Assembly (NCBI GenBank): GCA_900317715.1 | Contig: ONHS01000001.1 | Span: forward strand, 18,316 to 82,315 | DNA from: an uncultured Bacteroidales bacterium | Lineage (GTDB): Bacteria > Bacteroidota > Bacteroidia > Bacteroidales > WCHB1-69 | Direction: 5' to 3' | Length of the DNA: 64,000 bases | In this document: piece by piece, positions 9,790-61,727 of the stretch | How positions within the stretch are numbered: position 1 is the stretch's first letter | Layout of the letters: every line of letters begins with the position of its first letter | Program-made: the position numbers and the translations under genes | Notes under the pieces: model-generated | What the model was told of the DNA's origin: nothing | Database searches by the model: none | What the model saw: only the letters and a program-made list of their open reading frames with translations

Positions 9790-9877
9790 GGCTGTTGGCT
9801 TTTAGCTATTGGCTTTCGGCTATAAGTGGCTAATAGTCAACGGGAAAAGGCAATAGGGAATAGGCAATAGGGAATTG
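9790..9877 (-). repeat. heptamer STR block R1 (families D and E)
   Basis: Plus strand reads ggctgttggcttttagctattggctttcggctataagtggctaatag ... gcaatagggaataggcaatagggaat. The 7-nt period is visible. Confidence 0.75.
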
Positions 9878-9883
9878 CTAAAG

Positions 9884-10651
9884 TTATTGCTTTTTTGTGA
9901 TAAATCCTGCTTCGGAGATGTCGTAAACGTCCGATAAGTTGAAACAATTTCGGATATTTTCTTCGGTTAAGACCGCATTGCTGTCACCAAAATGGAGCGC
10001 ATTTCCACTCTTCAGCAATAGCACCTGCTTGGAGTATGATTTCGCAATCGGCAGGTCGTGCAGAATGATGAGCACCGTGACCTGCTGCTCCTCATTCAAC
10101 TGCTGCAAAATGTCCATGATCTCGAATTTGTGCGTGACATCGATGTTCGACAACGGTTCGTCCAACAGCATGATACCCGTCTGTTGCGCCATAGCACGGG
10201 CGATCATCACCCGCTGGCGCTCACCGCCGCTCAACGACTGCAACAAGGTGTCTCTGTAGTGCCATACGTTGCATTTTTGTAACATTTCCTCCACAATCTC
10301 CTTGTCTTCAGCACGTTGCATTTCCCACGGAGTCTGATATGGATTGCGCCCCAACATCACATAGTCGAACACGGAAATGTCGAACACAATATCCTGATAC
10401 TGCGGTACATACGCAATCTTTCTCGCCAAATCCATCATCTTGTACTCTGGCAGAGATTTCCCGTCCAGTATGATTGTGCCGCCGCTCGGTTGTAACAACC
10501 CCACGATACACTTCAGCAATGTGGTCTTGCCGGAACCGTTCGGACCTAATATCGAACAGAAGCCGCCTTGCGGGAAGCTAACAGACAAGTCGTTGAAAAT
10601 CATGCGGTTGTCGTAGGCGAATGTCAGATCGTTTATGCTGATACAGTCCAT
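9884..10651 (-). CDS. ABC transporter ATP-binding protein (FecE/FepC/BtuD-like), 255 aa
   Basis: Walker A GPNGSGKTT, signature LSGGERQR and Walker B MLLDEPLSNID. The overall pattern is that of iron-siderophore/cobalamin importer ATPases. Confidence 0.9.
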   Translation of the reverse strand: MDCISINDLTFAYDNRMIFNDLSVSFPQGGFCSILGPNGSGKTTLLKCIVGLLQPSGGTIILDGKSLPEYKMMDLARKIAYVPQYQDIVFDISVFDYVMLGRNPYQTPWEMQRAEDKEIVEEMLQKCNVWHYRDTLLQSLSGGERQRVMIARAMAQQTGIMLLDEPLSNIDVTHKFEIMDILQQLNEEQQVTVLIILHDLPIAKSYSKQVLLLKSGNALHFGDSNAVLTEENIRNCFNLSDVYDISEAGFITKKQ

Positions 10652-10810
10652 GTTTCAAGTTTCAAGTTTCAGGTTTCAGGTTTCAAGTTTCAGGTTTCAA
10701 GGATCAAGGATCAAAGTTCAAAGTTCAAAGTTAATGGTTTTTAGGTATCAAGTTTTAAGTCTCAAGTCTCACGTCTTAAGTCTCAAGTCTTACGTCTTAC
10801 GTCACACGTC
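10652..10810 (-). repeat. heptamer STR block R2 (sense order A then B)
   Basis: Fills the whole mutL-stop to ABC-start spacer. Plus strand reads gtttcaa/gtttcag x7, ggatcaa x2, agttcaa x2 ... gtctcaa/gtcttac/gtcacac units. Confidence 0.9.
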
Positions 10811-12676
10811 TCACTCGAAATAACGCCGTAATTCTTCTGCGCTGAAGATATGTAACGTGGTTTTTCCCGAGGGCGATAGAGTGGGCATGTCGCTTTCGAA
10901 CAATCTGCGTATCAGCGCTTTCACCTCTTCTTGCGTGCTTGGGACACGCTGGCGGGAGCGTTTTTGACGGGCCAGGCTTTGCGCGATGCCGGAGATTTTG
11001 TCGCCTTTGTGTATCACTTGGTTGGTTTGGTATGCGGAAAGTACGTTTTCGATAAGTGCTTGGACGTCACCTTCTTCCTCTTCGTCGTTAGGGGTGGCGT
11101 TGACCGCAATATGGGTGCTGTCCATCTTCTCCAAATCGTAACCTAATCGCAGGAAATCCTCCTTCAGCGACATGGCCAAATCCGTTTGTGCAGCGGTGAG
11201 GGTGACGGTTTGCGGGAATAGACTCTGCTGAGGTCGTATCGGGGTGTTTTTCAGCGCGTTGACATAAGATTCGTACAAGATACGCTCTTGTACATTGGGT
11301 AGGTCGGCTGTCATTACCTGACCGTTCAGTTCGAAGAAGAGATAGCGGCCACCGAAGACGAAGAAGGGAATGTTTTCGGGGATTTCGAGCTCGTTTTTCT
11401 CACTTTCCGTCTGGAAATCAACCGTTTGCTGTTTTTCTTTCGGGTATTCCACCTTCTCCACATTCAACTCTTTCAGGAAGTTCTCCCAATCGTTGGAGGT
11501 GGGTGTCTCGCGACGGAAATTGCCGCCGCCAAACTGCTGGAACGGGGAACTATGCTTCTTTTCCGGCACTTTGTCGAAGGGATTGTAGTTCGGGTTCGTT
11601 CGGATGGTGGGAGCAATAATCTCCTTGTTTTCAGGACGATCCGTGATGATGTCGGGGAAGGAGTCGTCGAAGTCGATCATCGGGGTGAGCGACATGGTGC
11701 CGAGGGCTTTCTTCACCGTGGAGTTGAGGAAACCAAAGAAGAGGCGTTCGTCTTGCAGTTTCACTTCCACTTTGGTGGGACTGACGTTCACGTCGATGTT
11801 GGCGGGGTCTATTTCCAGAGCGATGAAGTAGGCGGGGTGGGAGCCTTGTGGGATGAGGTCGGCGTAGGCCTTCTCGACGGCGAAATTGAGCAGGTTGTGG
11901 CGCACATAACGGTGGTTGACGAACATGTATTGTTCGCTTTTCCGTTTGGCGTTTTCGGGCTTGGCGATGAAGCCGGTGATGCGCATCAGTTCGTGGTCGA
12001 GTTCCACGGGGAAGAGTTTGTCGTTGAAATGCTGGCCGAAGATGTTGACGATGCGTTGCCGCATGTTGGAGGCGGGTAGCATGAGGATGAGCTTGCCATT
12101 GTGGTAGTATTGGAAGGAGATGTCGTAATGGATGAGAGCAACGCGGTAGAGCTCCTCCTCAATATGGGTGAGTTCCACCTTGTCGGATTTGAGGAAGTTG
12201 CGACGGGCGGGCACGTTGAAGAAGAGGTTTTGAACGGCAATGGAGGTGCCGTCAGACGCAGTGACGGGCGCATGTTCTTTGATGTCAGCCCCTTCAATGC
12301 GGACGAGGGTGCCCATTTCGTCGGCGGCGGGCTTGGTTTTGAGCTCCACGTGCGCGATCGCCGCGATGGAGGCGAGGGCTTCGCCGCGGAATCCTTTGGT
12401 GGAGATGTGGAACAGGTCGTCGGCTTTCCTCAGCTTAGAGGTGGCGTGCCGTTCGAAGCAGAGACGCGCGTCGTTGAATGACATGCCCTTGCCGTTGTCG
12501 ATGACTTGGATCAGGGTCTTGCCGGCGTCTTTCACCACCAGTTGGATGTTGGTTGCCCCAGCATCGATGGCGTTCTCCAGTAATTCTTTCACGACGGAGG
12601 CGGGGCGTTGCACCACTTCACCGGCCGCGATTTGGTTCGCCACCGCATCGGGCAGCAGTCGGATAATGTCTTCCAT
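10811..12676 (-). CDS. mutL: DNA mismatch repair protein MutL, 621 aa
   Basis: N-terminal GHKL ATPase signature LPDAVANQIAAGEVVQRPASVVKELLENAIDAGA with a typical C-terminal dimerisation region. Confidence 0.95.
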   Translation of the reverse strand: MEDIIRLLPDAVANQIAAGEVVQRPASVVKELLENAIDAGATNIQLVVKDAGKTLIQVIDNGKGMSFNDARLCFERHATSKLRKADDLFHISTKGFRGEALASIAAIAHVELKTKPAADEMGTLVRIEGADIKEHAPVTASDGTSIAVQNLFFNVPARRNFLKSDKVELTHIEEELYRVALIHYDISFQYYHNGKLILMLPASNMRQRIVNIFGQHFNDKLFPVELDHELMRITGFIAKPENAKRKSEQYMFVNHRYVRHNLLNFAVEKAYADLIPQGSHPAYFIALEIDPANIDVNVSPTKVEVKLQDERLFFGFLNSTVKKALGTMSLTPMIDFDDSFPDIITDRPENKEIIAPTIRTNPNYNPFDKVPEKKHSSPFQQFGGGNFRRETPTSNDWENFLKELNVEKVEYPKEKQQTVDFQTESEKNELEIPENIPFFVFGGRYLFFELNGQVMTADLPNVQERILYESYVNALKNTPIRPQQSLFPQTVTLTAAQTDLAMSLKEDFLRLGYDLEKMDSTHIAVNATPNDEEEEGDVQALIENVLSAYQTNQVIHKGDKISGIAQSLARQKRSRQRVPSTQEEVKALIRRLFESDMPTLSPSGKTTLHIFSAEELRRYFE

Positions 12677-12769
12677 AGGTTAAAAGGTTTAGAGTTTAAG
12701 GTTTAGGGTTTAGAGTTTAGAGTTTAGAGTTTAGGGGATAAAGGTTGGAAGGTTAGGGGTTAGGGGTTA
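12677..12769 (-). repeat. heptamer STR block R3 (family C only, G-free on sense strand)
   Basis: Plus strand reads ggtttag/agtttag/ggttagg units from the mutL ATG to, and including, the upstream stop codon. Confidence 0.9.
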
Positions 12770-13009: not shown

Positions 13010-13027
13010 AACTTTGAATTTTGTTTG

Positions 13028-13035: not shown

Positions 13036-13090
13036 CTATTTTTTTCGGTTAGTGTGAGGTGAAGAAAAAACTTATCGTTCCTTGGGTTCT

Positions 13091-18353: not shown

Positions 18354-19703
18354 ATGCATAAGTTTCATTTTAACGCTGCACGGTGGTTATTCCTGTTAGC
18401 CGCCGTGTGTGCGTATTCCGGATTATTGGCACAGGTGGCGGACAATGAATTCACGATTGACGCCAAATTGAACACCCGTGGAGAGATTCGCGTGGGTGGA
18501 TATGACGACGCGGATGGCGAAGGACAGGAAGGAAGAGCCCATTTTATCATGGGGCAGTATCGGCTCAACCTCGGATACAAGCGGTCCGACTGGTTGGAGA
18601 TACGTCTCTCACCGCAGTTCTCCGGCGTATGGGGACAGGCGGGCGGCACTTTGAATCTCTCTGAAGGCTGGCTCACGATGAAACACAACAAGACCGGTCT
18701 TTTCACCAAAATAGGTCGTCAAACTCTTGAATACGACGACGAGCGTATCTTGGGTTACGATGACTGGACCATGACCGCGCCCACCCACGACGCCATCAAA
18801 CTAGGTTTCGAGGGTTACGGTCACAAAGTGCATCTGATCCTCGCCTACAACCAAAATGCAGAAAACATTTCCTCCGGTATCACCTACTATTCCGATGGAA
18901 TACAGCCCTACAAGACCATGCAGACCCTTTGGTACCACTACAACACTCCGAAAAACTTCTTCGGCATCTCCTTGCTCGGCATGAATATCGGAGTGCAAAG
19001 CAAGAAATATGATGAGCCTAACAAAACTTTCTTCCAACAAATTTTCGGCACATACCTGAACTTGAACCCCAGCATTGTCAATGTGGAAGGCTCCTTCTAC
19101 TACCAAATGGGCAGAGAGGAACACGGAATCAAGCTGAACGCCTTCATGGGAAGCGCTAAGGCCACCGTCACCCCCAATGACATCTACAACCTTTACACTG
19201 GTTATGATTACCTGAGCGGTGACAATTACCCCGTCACGACAAATGGCAATTTGGGCCTTATTTTCCATAAAGAGGCGCGGGCATTCACCCCCTTGTTCGG
19301 TTCTCACCACGATTTTTACGGTGCCATGGAATTTTTCTATTTTGACAACTATGCGCACAACTTCTCCCCCGGTTTGCAAAACCTCTATGTCGGTGGCAAC
19401 GTCAGCCCCGTCCCGGGATTGACCATCAACGCCGCCTACCACTTCTACGCCATCGCCGCCGACCTTCAATACGCTCAAAAAGAATTGAACAAAGCATTGG
19501 GCCATGATGTTGACCTCGGCGTGTCCTACTCTTTCGCGAATTTTGTCAAACTGTCGGCAGGCTACTCCTACATGCGCGGCACCGAGACGATGGAAATCCT
19601 CCAAAACACCACCGACAAGCGCCGTCTGCATTGGGGCTGGTTGATGCTGACCGTCACCCCGACTTTCTTCACCACCACGTGGAATGATAAGAAGAAGGTT
19701 TAA
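18354..19703 (+). CDS. outer-membrane beta-barrel protein (porin-like, possibly alginate-export family), 449 aa
   Basis: Signal peptide LFLLAAVCAYSGLLAQ, alternating amphipathic strands rich in Y/G, and a C-terminal aromatic-rich strand. The family name is tentative. Confidence 0.6.
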   Translation: MHKFHFNAARWLFLLAAVCAYSGLLAQVADNEFTIDAKLNTRGEIRVGGYDDADGEGQEGRAHFIMGQYRLNLGYKRSDWLEIRLSPQFSGVWGQAGGTLNLSEGWLTMKHNKTGLFTKIGRQTLEYDDERILGYDDWTMTAPTHDAIKLGFEGYGHKVHLILAYNQNAENISSGITYYSDGIQPYKTMQTLWYHYNTPKNFFGISLLGMNIGVQSKKYDEPNKTFFQQIFGTYLNLNPSIVNVEGSFYYQMGREEHGIKLNAFMGSAKATVTPNDIYNLYTGYDYLSGDNYPVTTNGNLGLIFHKEARAFTPLFGSHHDFYGAMEFFYFDNYAHNFSPGLQNLYVGGNVSPVPGLTINAAYHFYAIAADLQYAQKELNKALGHDVDLGVSYSFANFVKLSAGYSYMRGTETMEILQNTTDKRRLHWGWLMLTVTPTFFTTTWNDKKKV

Positions 19704-19792
19704 GGTTGAGGGTTTAAGGTTGAGGGTTTAAGGTTGAGGGTTTAAGGTTGAGGGTTTAAGGTTTAAGGTTTAAGGTTGAGGGTTTAAGGTTT
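19697..19792. repeat. heptamer STR block R4 (ggtttaa/ggttgag 14-nt double units)
   Basis: Begins inside the last codons (aag gtt taa) of the porin gene and runs ~95 nt. Confidence 0.9.
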
Positions 19793-19884
19793 CAAATTTC
19801 ACGGATTTGGAGGCTGAGAAGAAAAAATTCATCGAACCTTTCCAACTGCATGGTGGCAGGCTGTTTCATACCAAAGTGATGCGT

Positions 19885-19910
19885 GCGCGGCGTACCGCGT
19901 CTTTTTTTTT
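19885..19910 (+). terminator. rho-independent terminator of the STAS-porin unit
   Basis: gcgcgg cgta ccgcgt hairpin followed by c + T9. Confidence 0.65.
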
Positions 19911-20067
19911 GTTAAAAACTTTTTTTATGAAAATAGGGGAAAAAGTGTATTTTGGCAACTGCTTCTTTGACAAGAAGCTTATTCAATATTAACAATTAAA
20001 AATACTGGAAAAAGGTGAAAAAAATATTTTGTAAATCTAAGAAATAAACGCTTGTCAGATACAAAAA

Positions 20068-20105
20068 ATACCGCTTCATTCGAAAATGAAGCGGTATTTT
20101 TTTTG
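20068..20105 (-). terminator. bidirectional rho-independent terminator after the 1507-aa gene
   Basis: 13-bp perfect stem ataccgcttcatt / aatgaagcggtat with a 4-nt loop. It is flanked by an A-run and a T-run. Confidence 0.85.
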
Positions 20106-20128
20106 TACAAAAAGGTAAGCTCACCGGA

Positions 20129-24741: not shown

Positions 24742-24860
24742 GGTTTAGGAGGTTAGAAGGTTCAAAGTTCAAGGTTCAAGGTTCAAGGTTCAAAGTTTCA
24801 GGTTTCAAGTTTCAAGTTTCAGGTTTCAAGTCTTAAATCATAAGTCACACGTCATACGTC
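24742..24860 (-). repeat. heptamer STR block R5 (sense order A, B, C)
   Basis: Sense strand reads gacgtatgacgtgtgacttatga... cttgaaa/cctgaaa x6, ccttgaa x3 ... ctaacctcctaaacc. The block overlaps the last 5 codons and the stop of the dus-like gene. Confidence 0.9.
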
Positions 24861-25762
24861 AAAAACTCCTTCAAGTCACAAATTCTCAACATCTGTTGCA
24901 GTTTTTCATCGGGCATTTGCATGAAAACGGCGAAATAGTGCCATAGTTCTTTCAGATTCGCCAGTGTGCCGGATTCTCCGCGGATGGGTAATAAATCATC
25001 GATAAGATTCTGATAGAAAGCGAGAAAACGACTGTTCTTGTCGCCAACTTCTTGACCTTTAATCTCTTCTGCCAAAAACGGATTTTGAAGCAACCCGCGA
25101 CCTAACATCCAAGCTTCCACATTAGGAAATCGTTCAGAGAGTGCCAGATAGTCTTCTTTGGTGAAAATATCGCCGCTATAGACGATTTTATGATGGGTTA
25201 TGCTGCAAAATTCCTCAAATATGTCCCAATGTGGTTTTCCTTCGTAGATTTCATCGCCCAAACGAGGATGGATGACCAGGAAATCCAATGGATAAGCGTT
25301 CAGCCGTTGCAGTAAAACGCGGCCTTCGTCGGGGTGATGCAGCCCGAGGCGCATCTTCAAGGAAACCTGAAACGATGTTTGTTCGGTGATGGCCGCCACC
25401 ATTCGTTCGATTGTGTCGGGGTGGGGCATGAGCCCGCACCCGCGCGTGTGTCGCACGACAGGGGACGAGGGACATCCGATGTTGATGTTAAAATGCTCGT
25501 ACCCAAACTGTTCGTGCAGCATGTTCATCGTGTCCACGAACTGTTGAGGTTGGTTGCCCATGAGTTGCGGGGTGAGTGGAAGGGCGGTGTTGTTTTCCGG
25601 AAGGATGTCCTGCCACACTTTCGGGCGGAATTTTCCGGCGGACTGCACGGGGAGGAATGGGGACATAAAAAAATCTATGCCGCCAAAATGACGGCATAGT
25701 GTGTTTCTGAATGTACGGGAAGTGATCCCGTGCAGAGGGGCTAACCAGAGTTCCGGTGCCAT
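24845..25762 (-). CDS. tRNA-dihydrouridine synthase family protein, 305 aa
   Basis: Dus-like TIM-barrel motifs (LAPLHGITS..FR, NIGCPS) and typical length. Confidence 0.8.
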   Translation of the reverse strand: MAPELWLAPLHGITSRTFRNTLCRHFGGIDFFMSPFLPVQSAGKFRPKVWQDILPENNTALPLTPQLMGNQPQQFVDTMNMLHEQFGYEHFNINIGCPSSPVVRHTRGCGLMPHPDTIERMVAAITEQTSFQVSLKMRLGLHHPDEGRVLLQRLNAYPLDFLVIHPRLGDEIYEGKPHWDIFEEFCSITHHKIVYSGDIFTKEDYLALSERFPNVEAWMLGRGLLQNPFLAEEIKGQEVGDKNSRFLAFYQNLIDDLLPIRGESGTLANLKELWHYFAVFMQMPDEKLQQMLRICDLKEFLTYDV

Positions 25763-30023: not shown

Positions 30024-30713
30024 ATGTATTTTATCATTTTCATCGTATTAATGGTCGCGAGCATGGTCATCCAAAAGACCTTGACCTCGCGCATGGAAAA
30101 ATATTCCAAAGTCCCGCTCAGCAGCGGGCTCTCCGGCAAGCAAGTGGCCGAGAAGATGCTGCGTGACAACGGTATTTATGACGTGCAGGTGACCTGCACC
30201 GGCGGTTATCTCACCGACCACTACGACCCGACCAAGAAGACGGTCAACCTGAGTGAAGGTGTCTATGAGGGTCGCAACATCTCCGCCGCTGCCGTCGCTG
30301 CGCACGAGTGCGGACACGCCGTGCAGCACGCCACTGCCTACCGCTGGCTCACCATGCGTTCCAAGCTGGTGCCCGCCGTGCAATTCGGTTCGCAATTCTC
30401 GACATGGATTCTGCTGGCAGGTATCGTCCTCTTAGGATTTACCCAGTATTTAGGACAATGGGTGCTGCTGATTGGCATTGCTCTTTTTGCATTGACCACC
30501 ATCTTCTCCATCATTACCCTGCCTGTGGAGTACAATGCTTCCGAACGTGCCGTCGCTTGGCTCGACGAGCAGGCCATCACCACTGGCGAAGAGACCGTTA
30601 TGGCCAAGGACGCCCTCAAGTGGGCCGCCCGCACCTACCTCATCGCCGCTATTTCCTCGCTGGCCACCTTGTTGTACTATATCTCCATTTACATGGGAGG
30701 AAGAAGGGATTAA
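30024..30713 (+). CDS. YugP-family zinc metallopeptidase, 229 aa
   Basis: HECGHAVQH zinc motif with N- and C-terminal TM helices, typical of the neutral zinc metallopeptidase (YugP) family. Confidence 0.85.
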   Translation: MYFIIFIVLMVASMVIQKTLTSRMEKYSKVPLSSGLSGKQVAEKMLRDNGIYDVQVTCTGGYLTDHYDPTKKTVNLSEGVYEGRNISAAAVAAHECGHAVQHATAYRWLTMRSKLVPAVQFGSQFSTWILLAGIVLLGFTQYLGQWVLLIGIALFALTTIFSIITLPVEYNASERAVAWLDEQAITTGEETVMAKDALKWAARTYLIAAISSLATLLYYISIYMGGRRD

Positions 30714-30743
30714 TTCATAATTCACAATTCATAATTCATAATT
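30711..30743 (+). repeat. heptamer STR block R7 (family F, ttcataa)
   Basis: taattcataattcacaattcataattcataatt spans from the stop codon to 3 nt before the next ATG. Confidence 0.85.
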
Positions 30744-30746
30744 GGA

Positions 30747-31835: not shown

Positions 31836-31975
31836 CTTGACGTATGACGTATGATTTGTGACTTGTGACTTATGACTTATGACTTATGATTAGTGATATA
31901 GACTAGATTCTTGACCCTTGACCTTCGACCCTAAACATTAAACTCTAAACCCTAAACCCCAAACCTTAAACCTTC
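31836..31975 (+). repeat. heptamer STR block R8 (A 31836-31897, B 31910-31931, C 31930-31975)
   Basis: cttgacgtatgacgtatga...gacttatgacttatgacttatga ... cttgacccttgaccttcgaccc taaacattaaactctaaaccctaaaccccaaaccttaaaccttc, then ATG. Confidence 0.9.
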
Positions 31976-32482: not shown

Positions 32483-33423
32483 TGTTTCCCTGGGGCGATG
32501 AGCGGCGGTTTAACGCCTATAGCCGCTATTGCAGAGCGCATTACGGCGGCAGAATCCAGAAACTGCCGGTGGATGCGGGTTTCTCCTGTCCCAACCGTGT
32601 GAGTCGCACGCAAGGCGGTTGCACCTATTGTGCCAACAGTGCCTTTTCTCCATCTTATCTTGCTGATAAAGAAGATGTTGCTTTTCAATTGGAGCGCGGT
32701 AAAACCTTCTTTCAGAAAAGGTATCCCAAGAATAAAGGTTATTTTGCTTATTTTCAGGCATATACTAATACAAATGCACCTGTTGAGGTCCTTCGGCGAA
32801 AGTTCGAGGCGGCTTTGACCGTGGCTGATATTAAGGGACTTGTCATTTCCACCCGTCCTGATTGTCTGCCGGAAGAGGTGTTGGATTACCTTTCCGAGCT
32901 GAACGAGCGCACACACCTGACGATGGAAATAGGCGTGGAAAGTTTTCATAATGAGACGCTTACGCATATCCATCGCGGACATACGGTGGAATGCACTTTC
33001 GAAGCGTTTGAAAAACTGCATCAGCGGAATATTTCCACCAGTGCGCATCTGATTTTCGGTCTGCCCGACGAGAAACCCGAGCAATGGTTGGAGGATGTGC
33101 GGATCCTCAATAGATTGCGGTCCCAGTTCGTGAAATTCCATCAGCTGCAGATTTTCAAGAACACCGCCATGGAAACCGAATATGCGCAACATCCCGAGCG
33201 TTTCCATTCTTTTTCCGCCGATGATTACGTGCAGTTTCTGTGCGATTATCTGGAGCGGATGTCCCCCGAAATTGTCATTGAGCGCTTCTCGGCCGAGGTG
33301 CCACCCCGCTATCTCGCTGTCTCCCAGTGGAATTTGCTGCGCCATGATGCGTTGGTGCGTAAGGTAGAGGAGGAAATGGAGCGGAGGGGAAGCTGGCAGG
33401 GAGGTTCAATTCATAATTCATAA
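32482..33423 (+). CDS. TIGR01212-type radical SAM protein, 313 aa
   Basis: QKLPVDAGFSCPNR.....GGCTYC cluster motif. ATG 32482 overlaps the upstream TGA (TGATG). The last codons lie in the F repeat. Confidence 0.8.
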   Translation: MFPWGDERRFNAYSRYCRAHYGGRIQKLPVDAGFSCPNRVSRTQGGCTYCANSAFSPSYLADKEDVAFQLERGKTFFQKRYPKNKGYFAYFQAYTNTNAPVEVLRRKFEAALTVADIKGLVISTRPDCLPEEVLDYLSELNERTHLTMEIGVESFHNETLTHIHRGHTVECTFEAFEKLHQRNISTSAHLIFGLPDEKPEQWLEDVRILNRLRSQFVKFHQLQIFKNTAMETEYAQHPERFHSFSADDYVQFLCDYLERMSPEIVIERFSAEVPPRYLAVSQWNLLRHDALVRKVEEEMERRGSWQGGSIHNS

Positions 33424-33432
33424 TTCATAATT
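33407..33432 (+). repeat. heptamer STR block R9a (family F)
   Basis: caattcataattcataattcataatt encodes the last 5 residues (IHNS plus stop) of the radical SAM gene. Confidence 0.85.
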
Positions 33433-35200: not shown

Positions 35201-35279
35201 TAATTCATAATTCATAATTCATAATTCATAATGCATAATGCATAATTACAATTCATAATTATTATTCACAATTCATAAT
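35201..35279 (+). repeat. heptamer STR block R10a (family F: ttcataa / tgcataa)
   Basis: taattcataattcataattcataattcataatgcataatgcataattacaattcataattattattcacaattcataatt. Confidence 0.9.
35216..35247. repeat. left arm of 32-nt inverted repeat flanking the four-helix-bundle gene
   Basis: aattcataattcataatgcataatgcataatt matches the reverse complement of 35652-35683 at 31 of 32 positions. Confidence 0.9.
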
Positions 35280-35290
35280 TAGGTAAAGGG

Positions 35291-35653
35291 ATGAAAGACA
35301 TTAAAGATAATATAATCGTAGTGAAGAGTACTGAGTTCGCAGTAGAGATTGTAAAAGCATGTAATTGGTTGCGAAAAGAAAAAAAAGAATGGGTGATGTC
35401 TGAGCAATTGTTGAAAAGTGGTACTAGCATTGGGGCTAACATTCGTGAGGGAATCAGGGGACAGAGCAGTGCTGATTTTTATGCTAAATTCAATGTTTCA
35501 CTCAAAGAAGCAAGTGAAACAGATTATTGGTTAGAACTATTATTTTTGAGTGGATATTTTGATAAAACTCTGTATGATGATCTGAATTTAAAATGCCAAG
35601 AATTAATACGATTGTTGATGTCCATAGTAAAACACAAAGATACCCCCAAATAA
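35291..35653 (+). CDS. four-helix-bundle protein (23S rRNA intervening-sequence protein / Avd-like family), 120 aa
   Basis: Length and motifs (SGTSIGANI.EG, F..K...SLKEA.ET.YWLELL) are typical of the TIGR02436-type family. Confidence 0.75.
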   Translation: MKDIKDNIIVVKSTEFAVEIVKACNWLRKEKKEWVMSEQLLKSGTSIGANIREGIRGQSSADFYAKFNVSLKEASETDYWLELLFLSGYFDKTLYDDLNLKCQELIRLLMSIVKHKDTPK

Positions 35654-35683
35654 TTATGCATTATGCATTATGAATTGTGAATT
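35652..35683. repeat. right arm of the 32-nt inverted repeat (family F in inverted orientation)
   Basis: aattatgcattatgcattatgaattgtgaatt overlaps the TAA stop of the four-helix-bundle gene. Confidence 0.9.
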
Positions 35684-35692
35684 AATTTTCAG

Positions 35693-35720: not shown

Positions 35721-36827
35721 ATGGAAAAGAGATATATCATCAGCGGCGGCGGTACTGGCGGGCACATTTTCCCCGCGTTGGCCATCGCTAACAAGATCAA
35801 AGCAGAAAACCCTGATGCCAAGATTCTCTTCATCGGGGCAAGCGATAAAATGGAAATGCGGCGCGTGCCGGAAGCTGGCTATCCTATTGAAGGACTGGAG
35901 ATTTACGGCATCCATCGCGACTTTTCACCTAGTGGCATTATGTGCAATTTGCGTCTGCCGGTGGTGATGATGAAGGCCATGAGTAAGGCCAAGAAAATCA
36001 TGCGCGAGTTCAAGCCCAATCTCGCCATCGGGGTTGGCGGATTCGCCAGCGGTCCCGCGCTAAAAGCTGCATCGCAACTCGGAATCCCGACACTTTTGCA
36101 GGAACAAAACTCCTACCCTGGGGTTACCAACAAGATGCTGGCCAAGAAAGCCAAGACCATCTGCGTGGCCTACGACGGTCTCGACCGCTTCTTCCCGCCC
36201 GAAAAAATCATCAAAACGGGCAACCCCATCCGCAAGGAAATCCTGCAGTTGGAGCGCAAATCGCCTGCCGCATACGAATATTTCAACTTTTCACCCGACA
36301 AGAAAACCGTGTTGGTGGTAGGCGGAAGTCTAGGTGCCCGCACCTTCAACCAGACCATGGCCGCCAACTTGGACGCTTTCCGTAAAGCAGACCTTCAACT
36401 GCTTTGGCAAACGGGCGAGCAATTCTACAAGAACATCGATCCTGAACTGCTTAAACAGCAGGACGAGCACATCCATATCGTGCCGTTTATCAAGAACATG
36501 AACGATGCCTACAGCATGGCTGATGTCATCATATCCCGTGCGGGTGCATTGGCGTTGGCTGAATTGACCATCGTGGGCGCACCTACCATCCTCGTGCCGT
36601 TCCCCTACGCCGCCGAAGACCACCAGACCTTCAACGCCAAGGCTCTCTCCACAAAAGATGCCGCCCTGCTCATTTCCGACAAGGAAGCCCCGGAGAAGCT
36701 GATACCCACGCTGTTACAACTTGTCAATGACCCGCACCGAATGGAAACCCTTGGCACGAACATCAAGACCTTCGCCCTGCCGAATGCGATTGATTTGATT
36801 TATGATGAGATTGTGAAGTTGGCGTGA
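35721..36827 (+). CDS. murG: UDP-N-acetylglucosamine--N-acetylmuramyl-(pentapeptide) pyrophosphoryl-undecaprenol GlcNAc transferase MurG, 368 aa
   Basis: GGGTGGHIFPALAIA N-terminal signature and GT28 C-terminal domain (GGSLGA, RAGA). Start moved to ATG 35721, because the track's N-terminal extension reads through the inverted F repeat. Confidence 0.9.
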   Translation: MEKRYIISGGGTGGHIFPALAIANKIKAENPDAKILFIGASDKMEMRRVPEAGYPIEGLEIYGIHRDFSPSGIMCNLRLPVVMMKAMSKAKKIMREFKPNLAIGVGGFASGPALKAASQLGIPTLLQEQNSYPGVTNKMLAKKAKTICVAYDGLDRFFPPEKIIKTGNPIRKEILQLERKSPAAYEYFNFSPDKKTVLVVGGSLGARTFNQTMAANLDAFRKADLQLLWQTGEQFYKNIDPELLKQQDEHIHIVPFIKNMNDAYSMADVIISRAGALALAELTIVGAPTILVPFPYAAEDHQTFNAKALSTKDAALLISDKEAPEKLIPTLLQLVNDPHRMETLGTNIKTFALPNAIDLIYDEIVKLA

Positions 36828-37030
36828 TGTGTGACGTGTGATGTGTGACGTGTGACGTGTGACGTGTGACGTGTGACGTGTGACGTGTGACGTGTGACGT
36901 GTGATAGTTGCTATAATCAAAAGTCATAAATCATAAATCAAAAGTCAAACGTCATAAGTCAAACTTCAAAAGTCAAACGTCATAAGTCAAACTTCATAAG
37001 TCAAACGTCAAAAAATAAACCTTAACCCCC
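36825..37030 (+). repeat. heptamer STR block R11 (A: tgtgacg x ~11 at 36825-36905; aagtcaa/acgtcat/acttcaa units at 36918-37010; short C)
   Basis: Starts with the murG stop TGA and ends 6 nt before ATG 37037. Confidence 0.9.
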
Positions 37031-37036
37031 AAAAAA

Positions 37037-41698: not shown

Positions 41699-41727
41699 CT
41701 CTGTTTATAAGTAAATAAAAATTCGCT

Positions 41728-45542: not shown

Positions 45543-45552
45543 CACCCAAAAC

Positions 45553-45617
45553 CTTGAAACTTGAACTTTGAATCTTGAAACTTGAATCTTGAATCTTGAA
45601 ACCTTAAAACCTTAAAA
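45553..45617 (+). repeat. heptamer STR block R12 (B: cttgaaa/ctttgaa/tcttgaa x7; then ccttaaaa x2)
   Basis: ccttgaaacttgaactttgaatcttgaaacttgaatcttgaatcttgaaaccttaaaaccttaaaaa. Confidence 0.9.
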
Positions 45618-51600: not shown

Positions 51601-54600
51601 ACTAGGAAACGGCCTTTGCGGGATGTCGGCGTGGACAACCAAAACCTACACGTTGAACCACTCCTACGCCGGTCTGCAACGACTCTATTTCCTGTGGCGC
51701 AACACCGGCTGGACAGTCTCCAATCCGCCAGCAGCTATCGACAACCTCACCATCGACGGTACCCCGTGTACCGATGTCCCTTACGAACTGACGGCGCAGG
51801 CGATGGACACGCTCGCCAATCTGTTGTGGTCTATGCACAACGGCAGTGCCGAATCCTACACTGTTGCCTACAAACTGCAATATGACACCGCCTTCACCTA
51901 CATCACCGTACAGGACGAACATCTCACCATTGGCAACCTCACCCCGCTGACCACCTACGTTTGGAAAGTGCGGGCCAACTGCACCGCCACCGACCACAGC
52001 CAATGGTCTGCGGAATCCACCTTCCAGACCCCGGCGATTACCGCTCGTCTGCCATACGTATGTGATTTCGAAGATGCGGATGAGAACAGCCGATGGACGT
52101 TCGTGAACGGGAGTTACGCCAACAAATGGCATATCGGAAACGCTGTGAACAACGGAGGCACCTCATCGTTGTATGTTTCCAATGACAATGGTGCCACCAA
52201 CACCTACACAACCAACTATTCGATGATTTGGGCTTACCGCGATGTCTATCTGGATCCCAGCTATACAGATTACGTGATTTCATTCGACTGCAGAGCTTTC
52301 GGCGAGCTGTATAACAACAATCCTGTTGACTACGCGAAGGTATTCTTAGGACCTCCCACGACACCAACTGTCACACCCGTCAGCTCAAATATTATTGTCC
52401 CTGACGGTGCAACCCAGATGGGCGATGTCATCTATTTGGATTCCACCTGGCACAATGTCACCATCAATTTAGACACCGCCTTCTCCGGTCTGCAGCGCAT
52501 CTACATCCTGTGGCGCAGCGATGTGTCATGGGGTACCAACCCGCCAGCGGCTTTCGACAACATCTCTATCACACCGGAGGGTTGCGGCATTCCACGCCAT
52601 CTGACCGCCAACCAAGTGTCGGAGAACGATGCAGTGCTGTCGTGGACTGCGGTTTACCAAGCCGACTCCTACACGGTGGCTTACCGCAGACAATCCGACA
52701 GCACCTACAGCTACGTAACAACCACCGATAACCATATTTTGCTGACCAACTTGTTGCCCAAGACCAACTATTTGGCGAAAGTCAAAACCAATTGTGACTC
52801 TTCACAGGGCGCATGGAGCGACGAGTTCCAGTTCAGTACGACTACTTTGCCCTATTTCTGCGGCTTTGAGGAAGCGGATGAGAACGCTTGTTGGATTTTG
52901 GATGACGGCATGAACAACCACAAGTGGTACATCGGCCATGCGGTGCACTATGAAGGTGATACAGCTCTGTACGTCTCCAATAACAACGGTGTTTCCAATA
53001 CCTTTTCTGATAATGTGAACGCCCAAACTTGGGCTTACCGCGACATCTACTTCGATCCGCAATATTCCGAATATCTGATGGAGTTCGACATCCGCTCATA
53101 CGGTTATCCTGGAGCGTCAGTAGACTATGTGAGAGTATTTCTCGGGCCGCCGGCAACTCCTTCTGGCAATTACACTCCAGCAAACGCAGAAGTCATCGGC
53201 GACTTCTATGGTATGACTAATTGGAACCATTCCCGTTTCGTAGTCAACGGTTCGCATGCGGGCATGCAACGTCTGTATTTCCTTTGGACACAGCAGATTG
53301 TCGGGACAAACAACAACCTTCCGGGTGCTGTTGACAACATCTCCATCGTCGGTTCGCCGTGCAGCATCCCGACGGAGTTGACCGTTTCCGACCTTGCAGA
53401 CAACACGGCGGTGGTCTCTTGGAGCCCCGGCGCGTGCGGCATCACCAACGACTACACGGTCGGCTATCGGATGAGCAGTGACACGGGATGGTACGAACTT
53501 TCCACCATCGATACATTCCTCCTGCTGGTGAATTTGCAGTCCTCCACGCAATACACATGGCGGGTACGTAAGAGTTGCGTGCCGTCATACTCCAGCCAAT
53601 GGAGCGAAGAAAGCACCTTCTTCACGGAGGCCACCGAGGCGCAGCTGCCCTATTTCTGCGGCTTCGAAGAGAGTGACGAGAATCGTGACTGGCGTCTGTT
53701 GGGTGTGAGCGATAACCGCTGGTATATCGGGCAGGCTGCGCAACAAGCTGGTCAATACGCCCTCTATGTCTCCAACGACAGCGGTGCCACCAATGCCTAC
53801 AATGTTTACGGCTCTATGACTAATTCCTGGGCGTACCGCGACATCTATTTCACCCCTGGTTACTCAGAATACCAGATAGCTTTTGATTTCCGAGGGCTTG
53901 GACAGAGCGGTGATGACCGTACTCGTATCTTCCTCGGACCTCCGGTCCAGGTAGAGCCTAACGCGACCTATTCCATCACCATCCCTTCCGGATTGGAAGA
54001 ACTTGGCAATGGATTGAACTCGGATGCTACATGGACCAGCCATTCGTTCACGGTTGATTCCACGCACGCAGGGCACCAGCGCCTCTACTTCCTCTGGAGC
54101 AACGGCTTCTATGAAGGGACGAACCCGCCGGGTGCTGTCGATAACATCATGATTTACGGCGGAACCTGTGCGGCACCGCATAGTCTGACGGTGACCGCAA
54201 CCTCCACGACCAGCATCAGCATCCAATTCACCCCCGCCAACAACGGCGACCAGAATTGGGAGGCAGTCATCGTGGAAGACGGCCAACCTATAGATACTAC
54301 GCAGATTGTTGCGCTGACAAGTACCGCCTATACTTTCAATAACCTGCACAAAGACAGGCTTTACGTCATCTATGTGCGCACCAACTGCGGGAACAGCCAA
54401 AGTGCTTGGAGCTCCACTTCCCAGAGAACGGATTGCGGCACCATTACCGATATTCCTTATCAAGAATCCTTTGACACCTACGGCACTGGCTCCAACTTGG
54501 ACGGTTATTCAGCCTTCCCGAGATGCTGGAGCCGCCTCTACAGCTCGTACATTGTCGCGCCTTACCCGTTTATTTTCCAAAACGGATATTTCAGCGCACC

Positions 54601-56804: not shown

Positions 56805-56842
56805 TGTAGAGACGTGTCATGGCGCGTCTCTACATTTCGTTT
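56805..56842 (+). terminator. stem-loop after the giant gene
   Basis: 10-bp perfect stem tgtagagacg / cgtctctaca with a 10-nt loop, followed by the T-rich tttcgttt. Confidence 0.55.
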
Positions 56843-59621: not shown

Positions 59622-59779
59622 GAAGGTTTAGGGTTTAGGGGGAAAATAAAGTTAGCAGTTAGCAGATAGTAGTTAGTAGTTAGCGGGGAGTAGGGAGAAG
59701 GGAATAGGGAATAGTCATACGTCAAAAGTCTAAGTTTAAGTTTATGTCTATGTCTAGGTTCAAAGTTCAAAGTCAAAGT
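59622..59779 (-). repeat. heptamer STR block R13 (sense order B, A-like, D, E, C)
   Basis: Fills the whole uvrC-stop to peptidase-ATG spacer. The sense strand ends ...ccccctaaaccctaaaccttcATG. Confidence 0.9.
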
Positions 59780-61552
59780 CTAAGTTTTATCCAGGTATTT
59801 TTTAAGGTCGGCGGCTTTTTTGGGGCCGAGGATGGCGGCGAGTTCGGGTTCGGTGGCGGCGGTGATTTTGGAGACGCTTTTGAATTCTTTTAACAGTTTG
59901 GTTTTGAGCACTTTGCCGATGCCGGGCGCGTCGTCTAGGATGGAGGCGATGCTGGTTTTGCTGCGGCGCTTGCGATGGTGGGTGATGCCGAAACGGTGTA
60001 CCTCGTCGCGCACGTGTTGCAGCAATTTTTGTGCTTCGGAGCGTTTGTCGATATAGACGGGCACGTCGTCGCCGACCTTGAAGATGTCCTCCAGTCGTTT
60101 TGCAATGCCGACCATCATCAGCCGGTCTTCGATGTGCAACGCTTGGATGGCGTTCCAGGCGGCGTGCAGTTGCCCTTTGCCGCCGTCGATGACCACCAAG
60201 TCGGGCAGCGGCTTGTTCTCTTCGAGCAGCCGGTGGTAGCGACGGTAGATGACCTCCTCCATGGAGGCGAAGTCGTCGGCCCCGACCACGGTTTTGATGT
60301 TGAAGTGGCGGTACTCGTTCTTGGCGGGTTTGCCGTCGATGAAGCAGCTCATGGCCGCCACGGGTTCCTCACCTTGCGTGTTGGAGTTGTCGAAACATTC
60401 GATACGGCGCGGTAACGTCTTCATTCCCAGCGCTTCCTGTAAGGCTTGCAGCACGCGCATGTTACGTCGCTCGGGATCCGCCAAGTCCTGACGTTTCTTC
60501 TTCTCCAACATGTAGAAATGGGCGTTGTGGGTGGCCAACTCCAGCAGTTTGCGTTTGTCACCGCGCTGCGGCACCTGCAAATCCCAGTCTTCGGGTGCGA
60601 GACTCGGCATGAACGGCACTAAAAGGGTGGGGGAGAGTCCTCCCAGACGCTCTTTCATTTCCAAGATGCCGGTCCAAAGCGCGTCTTCCGCGGTGGTCTC
60701 CAACCGATTGTCGATTTCCAAGGTGTGCGCTTGCACGACAGCCCCGTCTATTACACGCAAGAAGCTGATATACGTGCAGTTATCGTCTTCTTCCATGCCG
60801 AAGACATCCATATTGGTCAATGCGGGATTCACCACCACCGATTTACCGATGAAGTTCTCCAACGCTTCGATTTTCTGCTTGACTTCCGCTGCCTGCTCAA
60901 ATTTCCATTCTTCGGCGTACTGCATCATCTCCTCTTTCAGTTGCCGGATCACCTCTTTGCGGTTGCCTTTGATGATTTGGATGGCCTTCTCGATGTTTTC
61001 CTGATACTTTTCCGCCGTGATGAGACCGCAGCAGGGCGCGGCACACTTCTTGATTTGGTATTGCATGCACGGACGGTCGTTGTTGCGCAGGATTTTGCAG
61101 GTGCGCAACGGAAACATGTCGTTGAGGAGCTCAAGGAGTATATTCATCTGGCGGACAGAGGAATAGGGACCGAAAAGATGCATCTTGGCGGGGTCGGGGC
61201 GGCGTGTCGGAAATATCCGCGCAAACGGCTCCCTCGTAACCGCAATCCACGGGTAGGTCTTGTCGTCCTTCAGCATGATGTTGTACTTGGGCTTGAACTC
61301 CTTGATCATGCTGTTTTCCAGCAACAAAGCGTCCCATTCCGTATCCACCACCACGGTCTGGATGTCACGAATCTTCGTGACCAGCATCCGCACCTTCGCC
61401 GAATCGTGATCCTTGTTGAAATAGGAGGAAACCCTCCGCTTCAACCGCTTCGCCTTACCCACATAGATAACCGTGCCTTTATCGTCGTAGAAACGATAAA
61501 CGCCGGGCTTCTCGGGCAGGGTCTTGAGGATCAGTTTGATGTGGTCGGACAT
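59780..61552 (-). CDS. uvrC: excinuclease ABC subunit C (UvrC), 590 aa
   Basis: GIY-YIG N-terminus (PGVYRFYD..G.VIYVGKA), UVR domain, endonuclease V-like domain and C-terminal (HhH)2. Confidence 0.95.
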   Translation of the reverse strand: MSDHIKLILKTLPEKPGVYRFYDDKGTVIYVGKAKRLKRRVSSYFNKDHDSAKVRMLVTKIRDIQTVVVDTEWDALLLENSMIKEFKPKYNIMLKDDKTYPWIAVTREPFARIFPTRRPDPAKMHLFGPYSSVRQMNILLELLNDMFPLRTCKILRNNDRPCMQYQIKKCAAPCCGLITAEKYQENIEKAIQIIKGNRKEVIRQLKEEMMQYAEEWKFEQAAEVKQKIEALENFIGKSVVVNPALTNMDVFGMEEDDNCTYISFLRVIDGAVVQAHTLEIDNRLETTAEDALWTGILEMKERLGGLSPTLLVPFMPSLAPEDWDLQVPQRGDKRKLLELATHNAHFYMLEKKKRQDLADPERRNMRVLQALQEALGMKTLPRRIECFDNSNTQGEEPVAAMSCFIDGKPAKNEYRHFNIKTVVGADDFASMEEVIYRRYHRLLEENKPLPDLVVIDGGKGQLHAAWNAIQALHIEDRLMMVGIAKRLEDIFKVGDDVPVYIDKRSEAQKLLQHVRDEVHRFGITHHRKRRSKTSIASILDDAPGIGKVLKTKLLKEFKSVSKITAATEPELAAILGPKKAADLKKYLDKT

Positions 61553-61727
61553 GGAGGGTGAGGGTTTAAGGTTGAGGGTTTAGGGGGTTAATAGGTTAGG
61601 GTCGAGGGTCGAGGGAAAAGGGAGTAGGGAATAGTTCAAGGTTCAAAGTTCAAAGTTCAAAGTTCAAGGTTCAAAGTCAAAAGTCAAAGTTCAAAGTTCA
61701 AAGTCAGCTAACAGCTAACAGCCAGTT
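61553..61727 (-). repeat. heptamer STR block R14 (sense order E, B, D, B-like, C)
   Basis: Sense strand reads ctggctgttagctgttagctga ctttgaa units x ~10, ctattccctactccc, cctcgaccctcgaccc, ...ccctaaaccctcaaccttaaaccctcaccctccATG. Confidence 0.9.

Follow-up and report, generated by a model that had tools for sequence, protein, structure and literature searches.

Polar arrays of tandem heptanucleotides between genes of an uncultured rumen Bacteroidales bacterium

Results

Abundance of period-7 arrays in the window

The DNA analysed here, referred to as the window, is a stretch of 64,000 nucleotides (nt) from an uncultured Bacteroidales bacterium (GenBank assembly GCA_900317715.1, contig ONHS01000001.1, positions 18,316 to 82,315), in which many of the spacers between genes, among them those next to mutL, uvrC and murG, are made of head-to-tail repeats of 7 nt. 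The host is an uncultured rumen Bacteroidales: the window proteins carry hallmarks of Bacteroidota such as type IX secretion system (T9SS) C-terminal domains and CHU_C, the promoter boxes are of the TAnnTTTG type, and cow and yak rumen metagenomes encode hundreds of proteins that are 84-98% identical to the UvrC or the Zn-peptidase of the window.

A first-pass annotation, made from the letters alone, had described 15 blocks of tandem heptamers, and all 15 proved to be period-7 (or 14/21) arrays by Tandem Repeats Finder, with copy numbers reaching 19 and a lag-7 self-identity of 0.58-0.95 against 0.256 for the whole window. In a sliding lag-p scan, period 7 gave 16 runs totalling 1002 nt, and none of the periods 4-6 and 8-12 gave more than one run; across thresholds there were 16-18 period-7 runs against 0-2 at every other period, the looser threshold giving 18 runs that cover 1349 nt. 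The background for this comparison was a set of 80 metagenome contigs (1.10 Mb, mostly Bacteroidota) encoding ComM relatives of 53-69% identity, none exceeding 69% among the matches listed; these contigs held 1.5 period-7 runs and 63 nt per 64 kb, and the window is 12-fold denser by arrays and 21-fold denser by bases. Relatives of the host carry 7-12 period-7 arrays per 64 kb, together with 4-5 period-8 arrays, and array richness is a trait of the lineage, with the window at the upper end of its range.

The blocks are 26-206 nt long, no two alike, and sum to 1664 nt or 2.6% of the window, somewhat below the 1.8 kb and 3% first estimated; the initial ~40 nt of the block at 29832-30023 are only weakly heptadic. 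The first-pass statement that spacers consist almost wholly of heptamers is true of about ten (Table 1) and fails for the window at large, where intergenic DNA totals 5.35 kb, ~31% of it array, and the spacers with promoters are ordinary ones. The existence of heptamer-array spacers is confirmed, and the interpretation first placed on them is partly supported.

Independent samples and assemblers reproduce the same arrays, which were recovered in identical form in ENA assembly L001 and in scaffold L205 from another sample. The longest perfect array, (GTGTGAC)11 at 36825-36905, is a weak point of assembly: one scaffold shows 10 units and an N-gap at this place, and a Logan contig begins ~100 nt downstream, within the same spacer.

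Position and polarity relative to genes

All 15 blocks fall between called genes and the array spacers separate co-oriented genes, the array ends lying 0-3 nt past the stop codon and 0-16 nt short of the next ATG. The TGA or TAA of the first unit is often the stop codon itself, as in mutL, murG, the Zn-peptidase gene, the radical-SAM gene, orf81 and the AlgE-like gene, and the final codons of dus and the radical-SAM gene are array units. In a census of 247 kb of the lineage, comprising the window, the loci of nine relatives and two loci of the yak metagenome-assembled genome (MAG) RGIG10164, 48 of 51 period-7/8 arrays lay outside called genes, with 87.6% of the DNA coding. The arrays are non-coding, as had been claimed at the outset: five of the six unit families carry TGA, TAA or TAG in sense, and, 7 not being divisible by 3, each of the three frames then meets a stop once in 21 nt.

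The Bacteroidota -7 motif TAnnTTTG was found in all 12 non-array spacers of at least 80 nt that precede a gene, against 3 of 10 array spacers (hypergeometric p about 0.0007), and inside array sequence once only. Array spacers without the motif therefore look operon-internal, and the genes that flank them are probably co-transcribed. A role of the arrays themselves as promoters, suggested by the resemblance of AACTTTG units to the -7 box, was rejected because the motif stands no more than once inside them.

Read in the sense of the flanking genes, the units follow a recurrent order, with GTGTGAC, GTATGAC or CTTATGA at the stop codon, followed by CTTGAAA, CTTTGAA or CCTTGAC, then sometimes by CTATTCC and GCTAACT, and finally by CCTAAAC or CTCTAAA at the ATG. 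In the lineage census, the sense strand had more C than G in 21 of 25 start-adjacent arrays (binomial p = 0.0009), and stop-adjacent arrays leaned towards G over C (17 of 25, p = 0.11). Array orientation switches with gene strand several times along the window, and each gene of a divergent pair in relative L004 has its own sense-oriented array; orientation therefore tracks transcription and not replication.

From one unit type to the next the sequence changes a single base at a time, and the 7-nt register often runs unbroken through the entire spacer, as from 10810 down to 10652 (GACGTGT, GACGTAA, GACTTGA, GACTTAA, AACTTGA ... GAACTTT, GATCCTT, GAAACCT, GAAACTT). The discrete families A-F into which the units had first been sorted dissolve in this gradation and shared register; the recurrence of the same unit types at loci tens of kb apart stands, and extends to the relatives.

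Predicted RNA structure and composition of leaders

The transcribed arrays are predicted to be nearly free of structure in front of start codons. Over 75 nt the mean predicted fold was -2.3 kcal/mol for array leaders, -9.2 for other leaders and -16.1 for coding windows, and the start-proximal parts of arrays, 80-140 nt in length, have predicted values of 0 to -2.4 kcal/mol. G content is 6.7% in array leaders against 18.8% in other leaders. Long imperfect hairpins of -13 to -24 kcal/mol (z about -2.2 to -2.4) are predicted for the GUGUGAC parts, because ACGUGU self-pairs through G-U pairs.

Rho-utilisation (rut) sites are stretches of ~80 nt of unstructured, untranslated RNA with more C than G. 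In four spacers there are windows of 78 nt that contain 31-40 C and 0-3 G; their C/G ratios are 8-33, compared with a highest ratio of 4.25 among 2764 coding windows, and in composition and folding 4-6 spacers fit the rut-like pattern, a fit that is compositional only. An origin of the CCTAAAC arrays by amplification of ordinary leader sequence was considered: ordinary leaders are 40% A and 16% C, with AAACC/AACCT enriched ~3-fold, but the arrays are much richer in C. An Rfam scan of the window returned two tRNAs and no other family.

Turnover among relatives

Orthologous junctions differ widely between close relatives. Between uvrC and the M14 peptidase gene, the window has 158 nt of heptamers, and relatives whose UvrC is 96% identical to that of the window have a period-8 CATCATCG/CATCATCC array of 121, 129 or 161 nt. 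The LptD-like gene and uvrC, which are separated by a 175-nt array in the window, overlap in contigs with 96%-identical UvrC and lie 52-94 nt apart in further relatives. At 87-94% identity, orthologous spacers measure 41-182 nt and their repeats are few or different, and the DUF4831-to-orf168 spacer, 140 nt long in the window, measures ~7, 36 and ~47 nt in relatives. The junction between the Zn-peptidase and DUF4831 genes carries heptads in four lineages (the window, L207, L208 and L209) with a different unit in each, namely TTCATAA in the window and GAGTAAT, TTAAGAA and TAGTAAT in the others. At the start of the Zn-peptidase gene, a CCTAAAC array, ending in AAACCAAT-ATG, is present in relatives L207 and L208 (88-93% protein identity).

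Among contigs with identical or nearly identical flanking proteins, assemblies differ by whole units (1, 2, 4 and 5 units), and (GTGTGAC)n at the murG spacer has 10 units in one assembly and 11 in another, which is the behaviour of a variable-number tandem repeat. To judge from these comparisons, a junction can remain repeat-prone while its units are replaced, which is the behaviour of a site under slippage and concerted evolution. The earlier argument that recurrence at distant loci speaks against local slippage does not hold, since different units or periods at orthologous junctions and whole-unit copy variation are what slippage predicts.

Anatomy of individual arrays

Table 1. Heptanucleotide arrays and associated promoters in the window. 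Units are given in sense, from stop to start codon where ordered (>); folds are predicted.
Position	Strand	Context	Units	Spacer filled throughout	Further observations
9714		tRNA-Ser promoter, downstream of the arrays at 9784..9881	TAnnTTTG		
9784..9881	(-)	Two short arrays between the ABC ATPase stop (9884) and the tRNA-Ser promoter	CTATTCC/CTATTGC then AGCCAAA/AGCCAAC		
10652..10810	(-)	Whole mutL-to-ABC-ATPase spacer, 22.7 heptads in nearly one register, reaching ATG	GACGTGT > GACGTAA > GACTTGA > AACTTTG > ATCCTTG > AAACCTG/AAACTTG	10652-10810	Lag-7 identity 0.80; stop-proximal half -13.3 kcal/mol (z = -2.2), start-proximal half -1.3
12677..12766	(-)	Whole spacer upstream of mutL; unit 1 is the stop TAA of the upstream open reading frame (ORF)	G-free CCCCTAA/CTCTAAA/CCTAAAC	12677-12766	Minimum free energy 0 kcal/mol over 93 nt; one 78-nt window with C = 31, G = 0
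19697..19792	(.)	Convergent spacer; begins in last codons of + gene 18354-19703	(GGTTTAA GGTTGAG)n on + strand		Orientation exception; minus strand is the C-rich one
24742..24863	(-)	Overlaps final ~16 nt and stop of dus; followed by ordinary promoter (24727) and leader of 1507-aa gene	GACGTAT/GACGTGT > CTTATGA > CTTGAAA/CCTGAAA > CCTTGAA > CCTTCTAA		
29871..30023	(+)	Spacer upstream of Zn-peptidase gene, terminus AAACCAAC-ATG	GAGACGTGTGAC-type > CCTTGAC > CCTTAAAC/CCCTAAA	29871-30023	Final 101 nt fold at 0 kcal/mol
30711..30746	(+)	Whole Zn-peptidase-to-DUF4831 spacer; stop TAA inside first unit	(TTCATAA)n	30714-30746	
31836..31975	(+)	Whole DUF4831-to-orf168 spacer, up to ATG	GACGTAT > GACTTGT > GACTTAT > CTTGACC > CCTAAAC	31836-31975	
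33407..33432	(+)	Short array across stop codon of radical-SAM gene	(ATTCATA)n		
35201..35281	(+)	Fills spacer from comM to 23S_rRNA_IVP-family gene	(TAATTCA/TAATGCA)n	35201-35290	Identical in L205 (assembly of another sample)
35651..35686	(+)	Across IVP stop and annotated murG start	TTATGCA/TTATGAA, the reversed TAATTCA/TAATGCA family		
36825..37036	(+)	Whole murG-to-ybaK-like spacer; unit 1 holds murG stop TGA	(GTGTGAC)11 > GTCATAA/GTCAAAC > AAACCTTAACCCCCAAAAAA-ATG	36828-37036	GUGUGAC part -24 kcal/mol over 78 nt (z = -2.35); other 134 nt -2.3
45550..45617	(+)	In 94-nt spacer before 3714-aa gene	(CTTGAAA/CTTGAAT)n then CCTTAAAA units	45550-45617	5' leader, downstream of promoter-like TATTTTTG at 45535
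59622..59779	(-)	Whole uvrC-to-M14-peptidase spacer, reaching ATG	ACTTTGA > ACATAGA/ACTTAAA > GACGTAT > CTATTCC > GCTAACT/ACTAACT > CCCTAAA	59622-59779	
61553..61727	(-)	Whole LptD-like-to-uvrC spacer, to ATG	GCTGTTA > ACTTTGA/ACCTTGA > CTATTCC > CCTCGAC > CCCTAAA/CCCTCAA	61553-61727	78-nt window with C = 40, G = 2

The arrays at 35201..35281 and 35651..35686 bracket a single gene (35291-35653), which encodes a four-helix bundle of 120 aa of the 23S_rRNA_IVP family; in relatives, other genes follow comM. Segments 35215-35248 and 35651-35684 form a 34-nt inverted repeat of TAATTCA/TAATGCA heptads with 97% complementarity, which may pair as an RNA stem over a long range or be what is left of a cassette insertion. 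The annotated murG start (35670) sits in the reversed array, so that the true start is uncertain. Gene calling is misled elsewhere too: in L005 (10001-11881) UvrC is called at 626 aa, with its start inside a CCTTGAA array, against 590-593 aa elsewhere, and L006 8458-10014 is listed among such loci. A shared inserted module was considered behind the purine-rich codons that precede three TTCATAA arrays, and was rejected because ComM relatives align up to the last residues of the protein.

The unit CCCTAAA, present at 12677-12766, 29970-30013, 31928-31972, 59625-59640 and 61554-61586, is the reverse complement of TTTAGGG, the plant-type telomere repeat. As rumen samples are full of plant DNA, classifiers and decontamination filters could mis-assign short reads from these spacers.

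Tandem arrays of other periods lie in 3' regions, with seven copies of TTCATCGTCT at 33487-33558, between the radical-SAM gene and the comM promoter, and 2.6 copies of ATCATTTAGTTT at 9366-9396, downstream of the AbiEii gene. That gene forms, with an AbiEi-like antitoxin gene (DUF6088/AbiEi_3_N) and a 4-nt overlap, a type IV toxin-antitoxin or abortive-infection module at 7670-9279 (+), AbiEii being the nucleotidyltransferase toxin; in relative L208 an AbiEii gene adjoins comM. The convergent spacer 19704-20128 contains, at ~19900-20100, a promoter-like GTGTATTTTGGCAAC followed ~130 nt on by a strong terminator hairpin (AAAAAATACCGCTTCATTCGAAAATGAAGCGGTATTTTTTTT), a stretch that may be a small RNA gene without Rfam match. 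The 3714-aa protein encoded at 45629-56773 (+) is a fibronectin-III (fn3), T9SS-sorted protein with ~10 internal repeats of ~790 nt, and two more fn3/T9SS proteins are encoded upstream at 38987-45534.

Palindromes, mobile elements and mismatch repair

The negative statements of the first-pass annotation survived scrutiny. The arrays are not clustered regularly interspaced short palindromic repeats (CRISPR), as the 7-nt units directly abut without unique spacers, and no cas domains were found among the Pfam-scanned ORFs of the window. Nor are they copies of insertion sequences or miniature inverted-repeat transposable elements, having no terminal inverted repeats, fixed unit, constant length or shared ends.

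Being direct repeats, the heptad arrays also differ from the imperfect palindromes of repetitive extragenic palindromic (REP) sequences and bacterial interspersed mosaic elements (BIME), and only their GUGUGAC portions are predicted to fold. The lineage has a REP-like family of its own, a 28-nt palindrome of the form GTAGAGACG-N10-CGTCTCTAC found in the window (56806-56833), in relatives and in RGIG10164, with copies at L002 18217/19248/19303, L003 13517, L005 17921/18202, L006 7720, L007 10015, L010 8060, L063 1107, L165 4983, L208 9919/10723 and L209 10728/18334. The central 10 nt are likewise self-complementary, and where they vary the changes are compensatory; the majority of copies stand behind stop codons, and in relatives some fall inside the part of the M14 peptidase gene that encodes the T9SS C-terminal domain. 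Two of the six GTGTGAC-type arrays of the window start with GAGACGTGT, like the REP copy of the window, and L208 has a REP-like hairpin at the Zn-peptidase junction in place of the GTGTGAC array of the window. A derivation of GTGTGAC arrays from the palindrome was not adopted on these two of six arrays and one orthologous junction, and is kept as speculation.

The mutL gene (10811-12676, -) is flanked by arrays on both sides, and its product has DLPNVQERILYE in place of DQHA(X)2E(X)4E and SPSGKT in place of CPHGRP, lacking both endonuclease motifs; the C-terminal domain aligns best with MutL of the E. coli type. Among the 150 most similar MutL cluster representatives (24-52% identical), only 4 and 2 have the endonuclease motifs and SPSGK is the norm. 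A mismatch-repair defect was rejected as the cause of the arrays, the motif loss being common to a large clade and not specific to the array-rich lineage. That a MutL clade lacks the metal-binding motifs of the endonuclease raises the question of how strands are nicked.

Distribution beyond the lineage

When one genome of each species was scanned for exact (GTGTGAC)3, at least 112 loci matched, where ~0.3 would be expected by chance at equal base frequencies. The matches listed include Streptomyces and other Actinomycetota, Acidimicrobiia, Verrucomicrobiota, Chloroflexota, Planctomycetota, Acidobacteriota, Gemmatimonadota, Omnitrophota, Patescibacteria, Proteobacteria, one cyanobacterium and one archaeal MAG, as well as ~10 Bacteroidota, including the yak-rumen MAG, an Odoribacter and a Bacteroides. 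Many of the 8-kb loci around these matches hold several heptad arrays with similarly graded units. The repeat is not peculiar to the host, and heptad arrays are widespread and under-described in prokaryotic intergenic DNA.

Among the same matches, co-directional spacers had (GTGTGAC)n in sense in 15 cases and in antisense in 17, showing no preference, and a universal orientation rule for this unit was discarded on that count. A further 27 matches, classed as coding on the opposite strand, reflect only the lack of a stop codon in the reverse unit. In Verrucomicrobiota, Planctomycetota and Acidobacteriota the arrays listed are often inverted pairs, (GTGACGx)n ... (GTCACxx)n ~15 nt apart, as at L056 804-886/1457-1558, L114 2509-3151, L022 1147-1230 and L120 3945-4042/7644-7743; such pairs would form long hairpins built of heptads. 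The close relative L010 has a comparable pair at 12563-12636, in which GTTTCAA and CTTGAAA arrays are inverted to each other.

Discussion

The reading favoured here, with a probability of roughly 0.6, is that the arrays are hypervariable intercistronic filler generated by slippage, whose sequence and orientation are filtered by selection on the mRNA. It starts from what is observed, namely the anatomy, position and polarity of the arrays, the unstructured RNA predicted for them, the absence of promoters, their turnover and their copy-number polymorphism. Replication slippage or unequal exchange, in units of 7 nt, would both create the arrays and drive their turnover in the promoter-less gaps between co-oriented, probably co-transcribed genes, which would be the only DNA where 7-nt insertions and deletions are harmless. 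Loops of 7 nt exceed what bacterial MutS and mismatch repair are known to recognise or correct. Growth may proceed from both gene ends, with stop-containing, G/T-rich units (GTGTGAC, TAATTCA) spreading from the stop codon and A/C-rich CCTAAAC units from the start, and the units may drift through point mutation and local re-amplification; two-ended growth and drift of this kind would explain both the graded families and their fixed order.

Selection, in the same reading, would keep the ~60-140 nt before the start codon nearly free of G and of structure. Bacteroidia initiate translation without Shine-Dalgarno pairing, from unstructured leaders depleted of upstream AUG (PMC6847099, PMC7797042). 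A structure-free leader would suit such initiation, and the reverse complements of the units are G-rich and could pair or form quadruplexes. The outcome would be a tolerated linker of variable length that uncouples neighbouring cistrons yet allows initiation, and would not be a conserved regulatory element.

Several observations weigh against this reading, in which slippage, co-transcription, the selective filter and any effect on fitness are what we infer. The stop-proximal segment 31836-31895 folds at just -4.3 kcal/mol, so it is not hairpin-prone, and four arrays are exceptions to the orientation, namely 19697-19792, where the G-rich strand is in sense, 35651-35686, L002 3367 and L004 11768. 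Arrays of the CCTAAAC type contain 30-40% C, far above the proportion in ordinary leaders, and CCTAAAC and close variants recur immediately upstream of start codons in at least 9 of ~24 start-adjacent arrays of the lineage, a recurrence that a pure filter for any unstructured leader does not predict and that hints at a sequence-specific function or at exchange between loci. The richness of the lineage in arrays is also left unaccounted for, the loss of MutL motifs being shared by nearly all 150 similar domains.

An alternative reading is that the spacers are functional RNA modules maintained by selection, in which a 5' (GUGUGAC)n hairpin, replacing the REP-like hairpin of the lineage, would protect or process the upstream 3' end, and a 3' platform of (CCUAAAC)n and related units would bind, sequence-specifically, bS1, a cold-shock-type or another RNA-binding protein and so set the rate of initiation, with unit number acting as a rheostat. 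This is unlikely, though several points fit it: the order from hairpin-prone through intermediate to CCTAAAC units recurs at several junctions and in the yak-rumen MAG, CCTAAAC arrays abut the ATG of many unrelated genes, are kept at the Zn-peptidase start and are much richer in C than ordinary leaders, and the REP-like hairpin of L208 and the two arrays beginning with GAGACGTGT would link palindrome and array. Binding of S1, Csp or CsrA has moreover been proposed for TAACTGA repeats (PMC4679880). Against modules stands the change of unit type, of period (7 or 8) or of the entire spacer within 96% protein identity; the REP-like beginning is confined to two of six GTGTGAC-type arrays and several array spacers have no such array, no candidate binding protein has been identified, and the orientation of (GTGTGAC)n across phyla is even among the matches listed. 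A broader version, a functional grammar of heptads in which the GUGUGAC hairpin would define or protect the upstream mRNA end, G-free CCUAAAC would serve as a sequence-specific platform for the ribosome, bS1 or Rho, and unit number would tune the relative expression of neighbouring cistrons, is slightly more doubtful again. If it were true, the arrays would be a heritable, fast-evolving rheostat inside operons, and the class of cyanobacterial and TAACTGA heptamer repeats discussed below would gain a function.

The extreme C/G ratios of four spacers, their near-zero predicted structure and the absence of promoters downstream of the arrays could instead reflect loading of Rho, with partial termination before the next gene and intra-operon attenuators tuned by unit number. 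This is quite improbable, as the downstream genes, among them uvrC, mutL and a neighbour of murG, have no promoters of their own, so that efficient termination would silence housekeeping genes, and CTTGAAA and TTCATAA arrays are not rich in C. Very improbable is an effect at the level of DNA, either through keeping the G-rich (TTTAGGG)n strand off the non-template strand to avoid quadruplexes or R-loops, or through contingency loci that alter the spacing of promoters and operators. The complement of CCCTAAA is indeed quadruplex-prone, copy number is polymorphic, the array at 24742-24863 lies just upstream of a promoter, and quadruplexes of G-rich heptamers are documented in Xanthomonas and Nostoc (PMC4692102); but GGG runs occur in some units only, most arrays are far from promoters and none lies between promoter elements, and 7-nt steps between a stop and a start codon switch no reading frame. 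A small mobile element, a dedicated process of spreading between loci or an assembly artefact is hardly credible: units are shared by distant loci, the 34-nt inverted repeat surrounds the IVP gene, and assemblers break or leave gaps at the longest array, yet the arrays have neither constant length, terminal inverted repeats nor target duplications, their units grade continuously, they match no Rfam family and no CRISPR-like architecture, and they recur identically in independent samples and assemblies while being below or near k-mer and read length.

Intergenic arrays of heptanucleotides have been known since 1990 and are still unexplained, and their existence alone would not much surprise a specialist. 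The polarity, the rut-like, structure-free composition and the length alleles make the old question more tractable, and the lineage offers an unusually clean natural data set, with spacers made wholly of heptads, a polarity from stop to start, a phylum that does without Shine-Dalgarno sequences and many length alleles in public rumen metagenomes. Two ideas become testable, that the arrays are tolerated as structure-free leaders, as the slippage-and-filter reading holds, and that they load Rho or a binding protein. In practice, the arrays break assemblies and mislead gene callers, and they could serve as strain markers.

Comparison with known heptamer repeats

The units of the short tandemly repeated repetitive (STRR) sequences, STRR1-3, of heterocystous cyanobacteria are CCCCAGT, TTGGTCA and CAACAGT, none of which stands even twice in tandem in the window. 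The first-pass annotation had named these repeats as the closest parallel, and they are a fair functional one: in Calothrix and Nostoc a few heptamer families stand in tandem at many intergenic sites, some operon-internal, although the units and the phylum are different. To our knowledge STRRs have not been described as polar from stop to start. A 1990 report on Calothrix described three families of heptamers, according to the account in PMC4692102.

A precedent exists within Bacteroidota, contrary to the initial belief that no description existed there. MacGregor 2015 found TAACTGA, along with further direct repeats of heptamers, between genes of five Bacteroidetes (PMC4679880); the hosts of TAACTGA are marine Beggiatoaceae, some cyanobacteria and these five, which include Flexibacter litoralis, Gramella forsetii, Aequorivita sublithincola and Paludibacter propionicigenes. 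These repeats lie mostly in forward orientation a few nt upstream of start codons without ribosome-binding site, have stops in all frames, overlap upstream stop codons, are operon-internal and are absent from close relatives at the same junctions, and binding by S1, Csp or CsrA was proposed for them in the same study (PMC4679880). Full-text literature searches returned no other paper on such repeats in Bacteroidota. The window arrays resemble them as intergenic tandem heptamers upstream of starts, with all-frame stops, overlap with the upstream stop and probable operon-internal position, and Gramella and Aequorivita spacers also hold other heptamers. TAACTGA itself occurs in the window as three single copies, none in tandem; the GCTAACT/ACTAACT units at 59650-59690, read as (TAACTGC)n/(TAACTAC)n, are one base off. 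The window differs in stringing many unit types in fixed order along a whole spacer, up to ~30 units, where BOGUAY has 2-6 copies of one, and its host is an anaerobic rumen Bacteroidales. The density and polar composite structure of the window arrays are not found in earlier accounts of Bacteroidota.

Other repeats share single features. The GGGAATC and GGGGA(T/C)T heptamers of Xanthomonas and Nostoc, described by Rehm et al. 2015, are over-represented between genes and form quadruplexes, and those of Xanthomonas vary greatly in length and sequence among close relatives (PMC4692102). Like the window arrays they are intergenic, variable between relatives and occasionally in inverted pairs, but they are G-rich, whereas the mRNA-sense strand of the window is G-poor at start codons and no unit dominates. 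The repeats of contingency loci in Haemophilus, Neisseria and Campylobacter likewise change by whole units between strains or samples; their units of 1-5 nt lie in reading frames or between promoter elements and switch genes on or off, whereas the window arrays run from stop to start and shift no frame. REP sequences and BIMEs of enterobacteria are imperfect palindromes of fixed length that form hairpins in operon-internal spacers just past stop codons; the window arrays have in common with them repeats after the stop and GUGUGAC parts predicted to form hairpins, and differ in being tandem heptads with most of the spacer length free of structure.

The widest frame is that of long simple-sequence repeats (LSSR, unit 5-11 nt), among which heptanucleotides are the commonest in prokaryotes and for which polymerase slippage was proposed by Mrazek et al. 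2007, as cited in PMC4679880 and PMC4692102. In that survey, as those two papers present it, no Bacteroidetes are named among the richest genomes and composite polar arrays are not described. Heptamer units, and the limitation to non-coding DNA of units that are not multiples of three, are features of these repeats that the window arrays share. The arrays are members of this class of long heptanucleotide simple-sequence repeats, alongside the STRR, TAACTGA and GGGAATC types, and are unusually dense among them.

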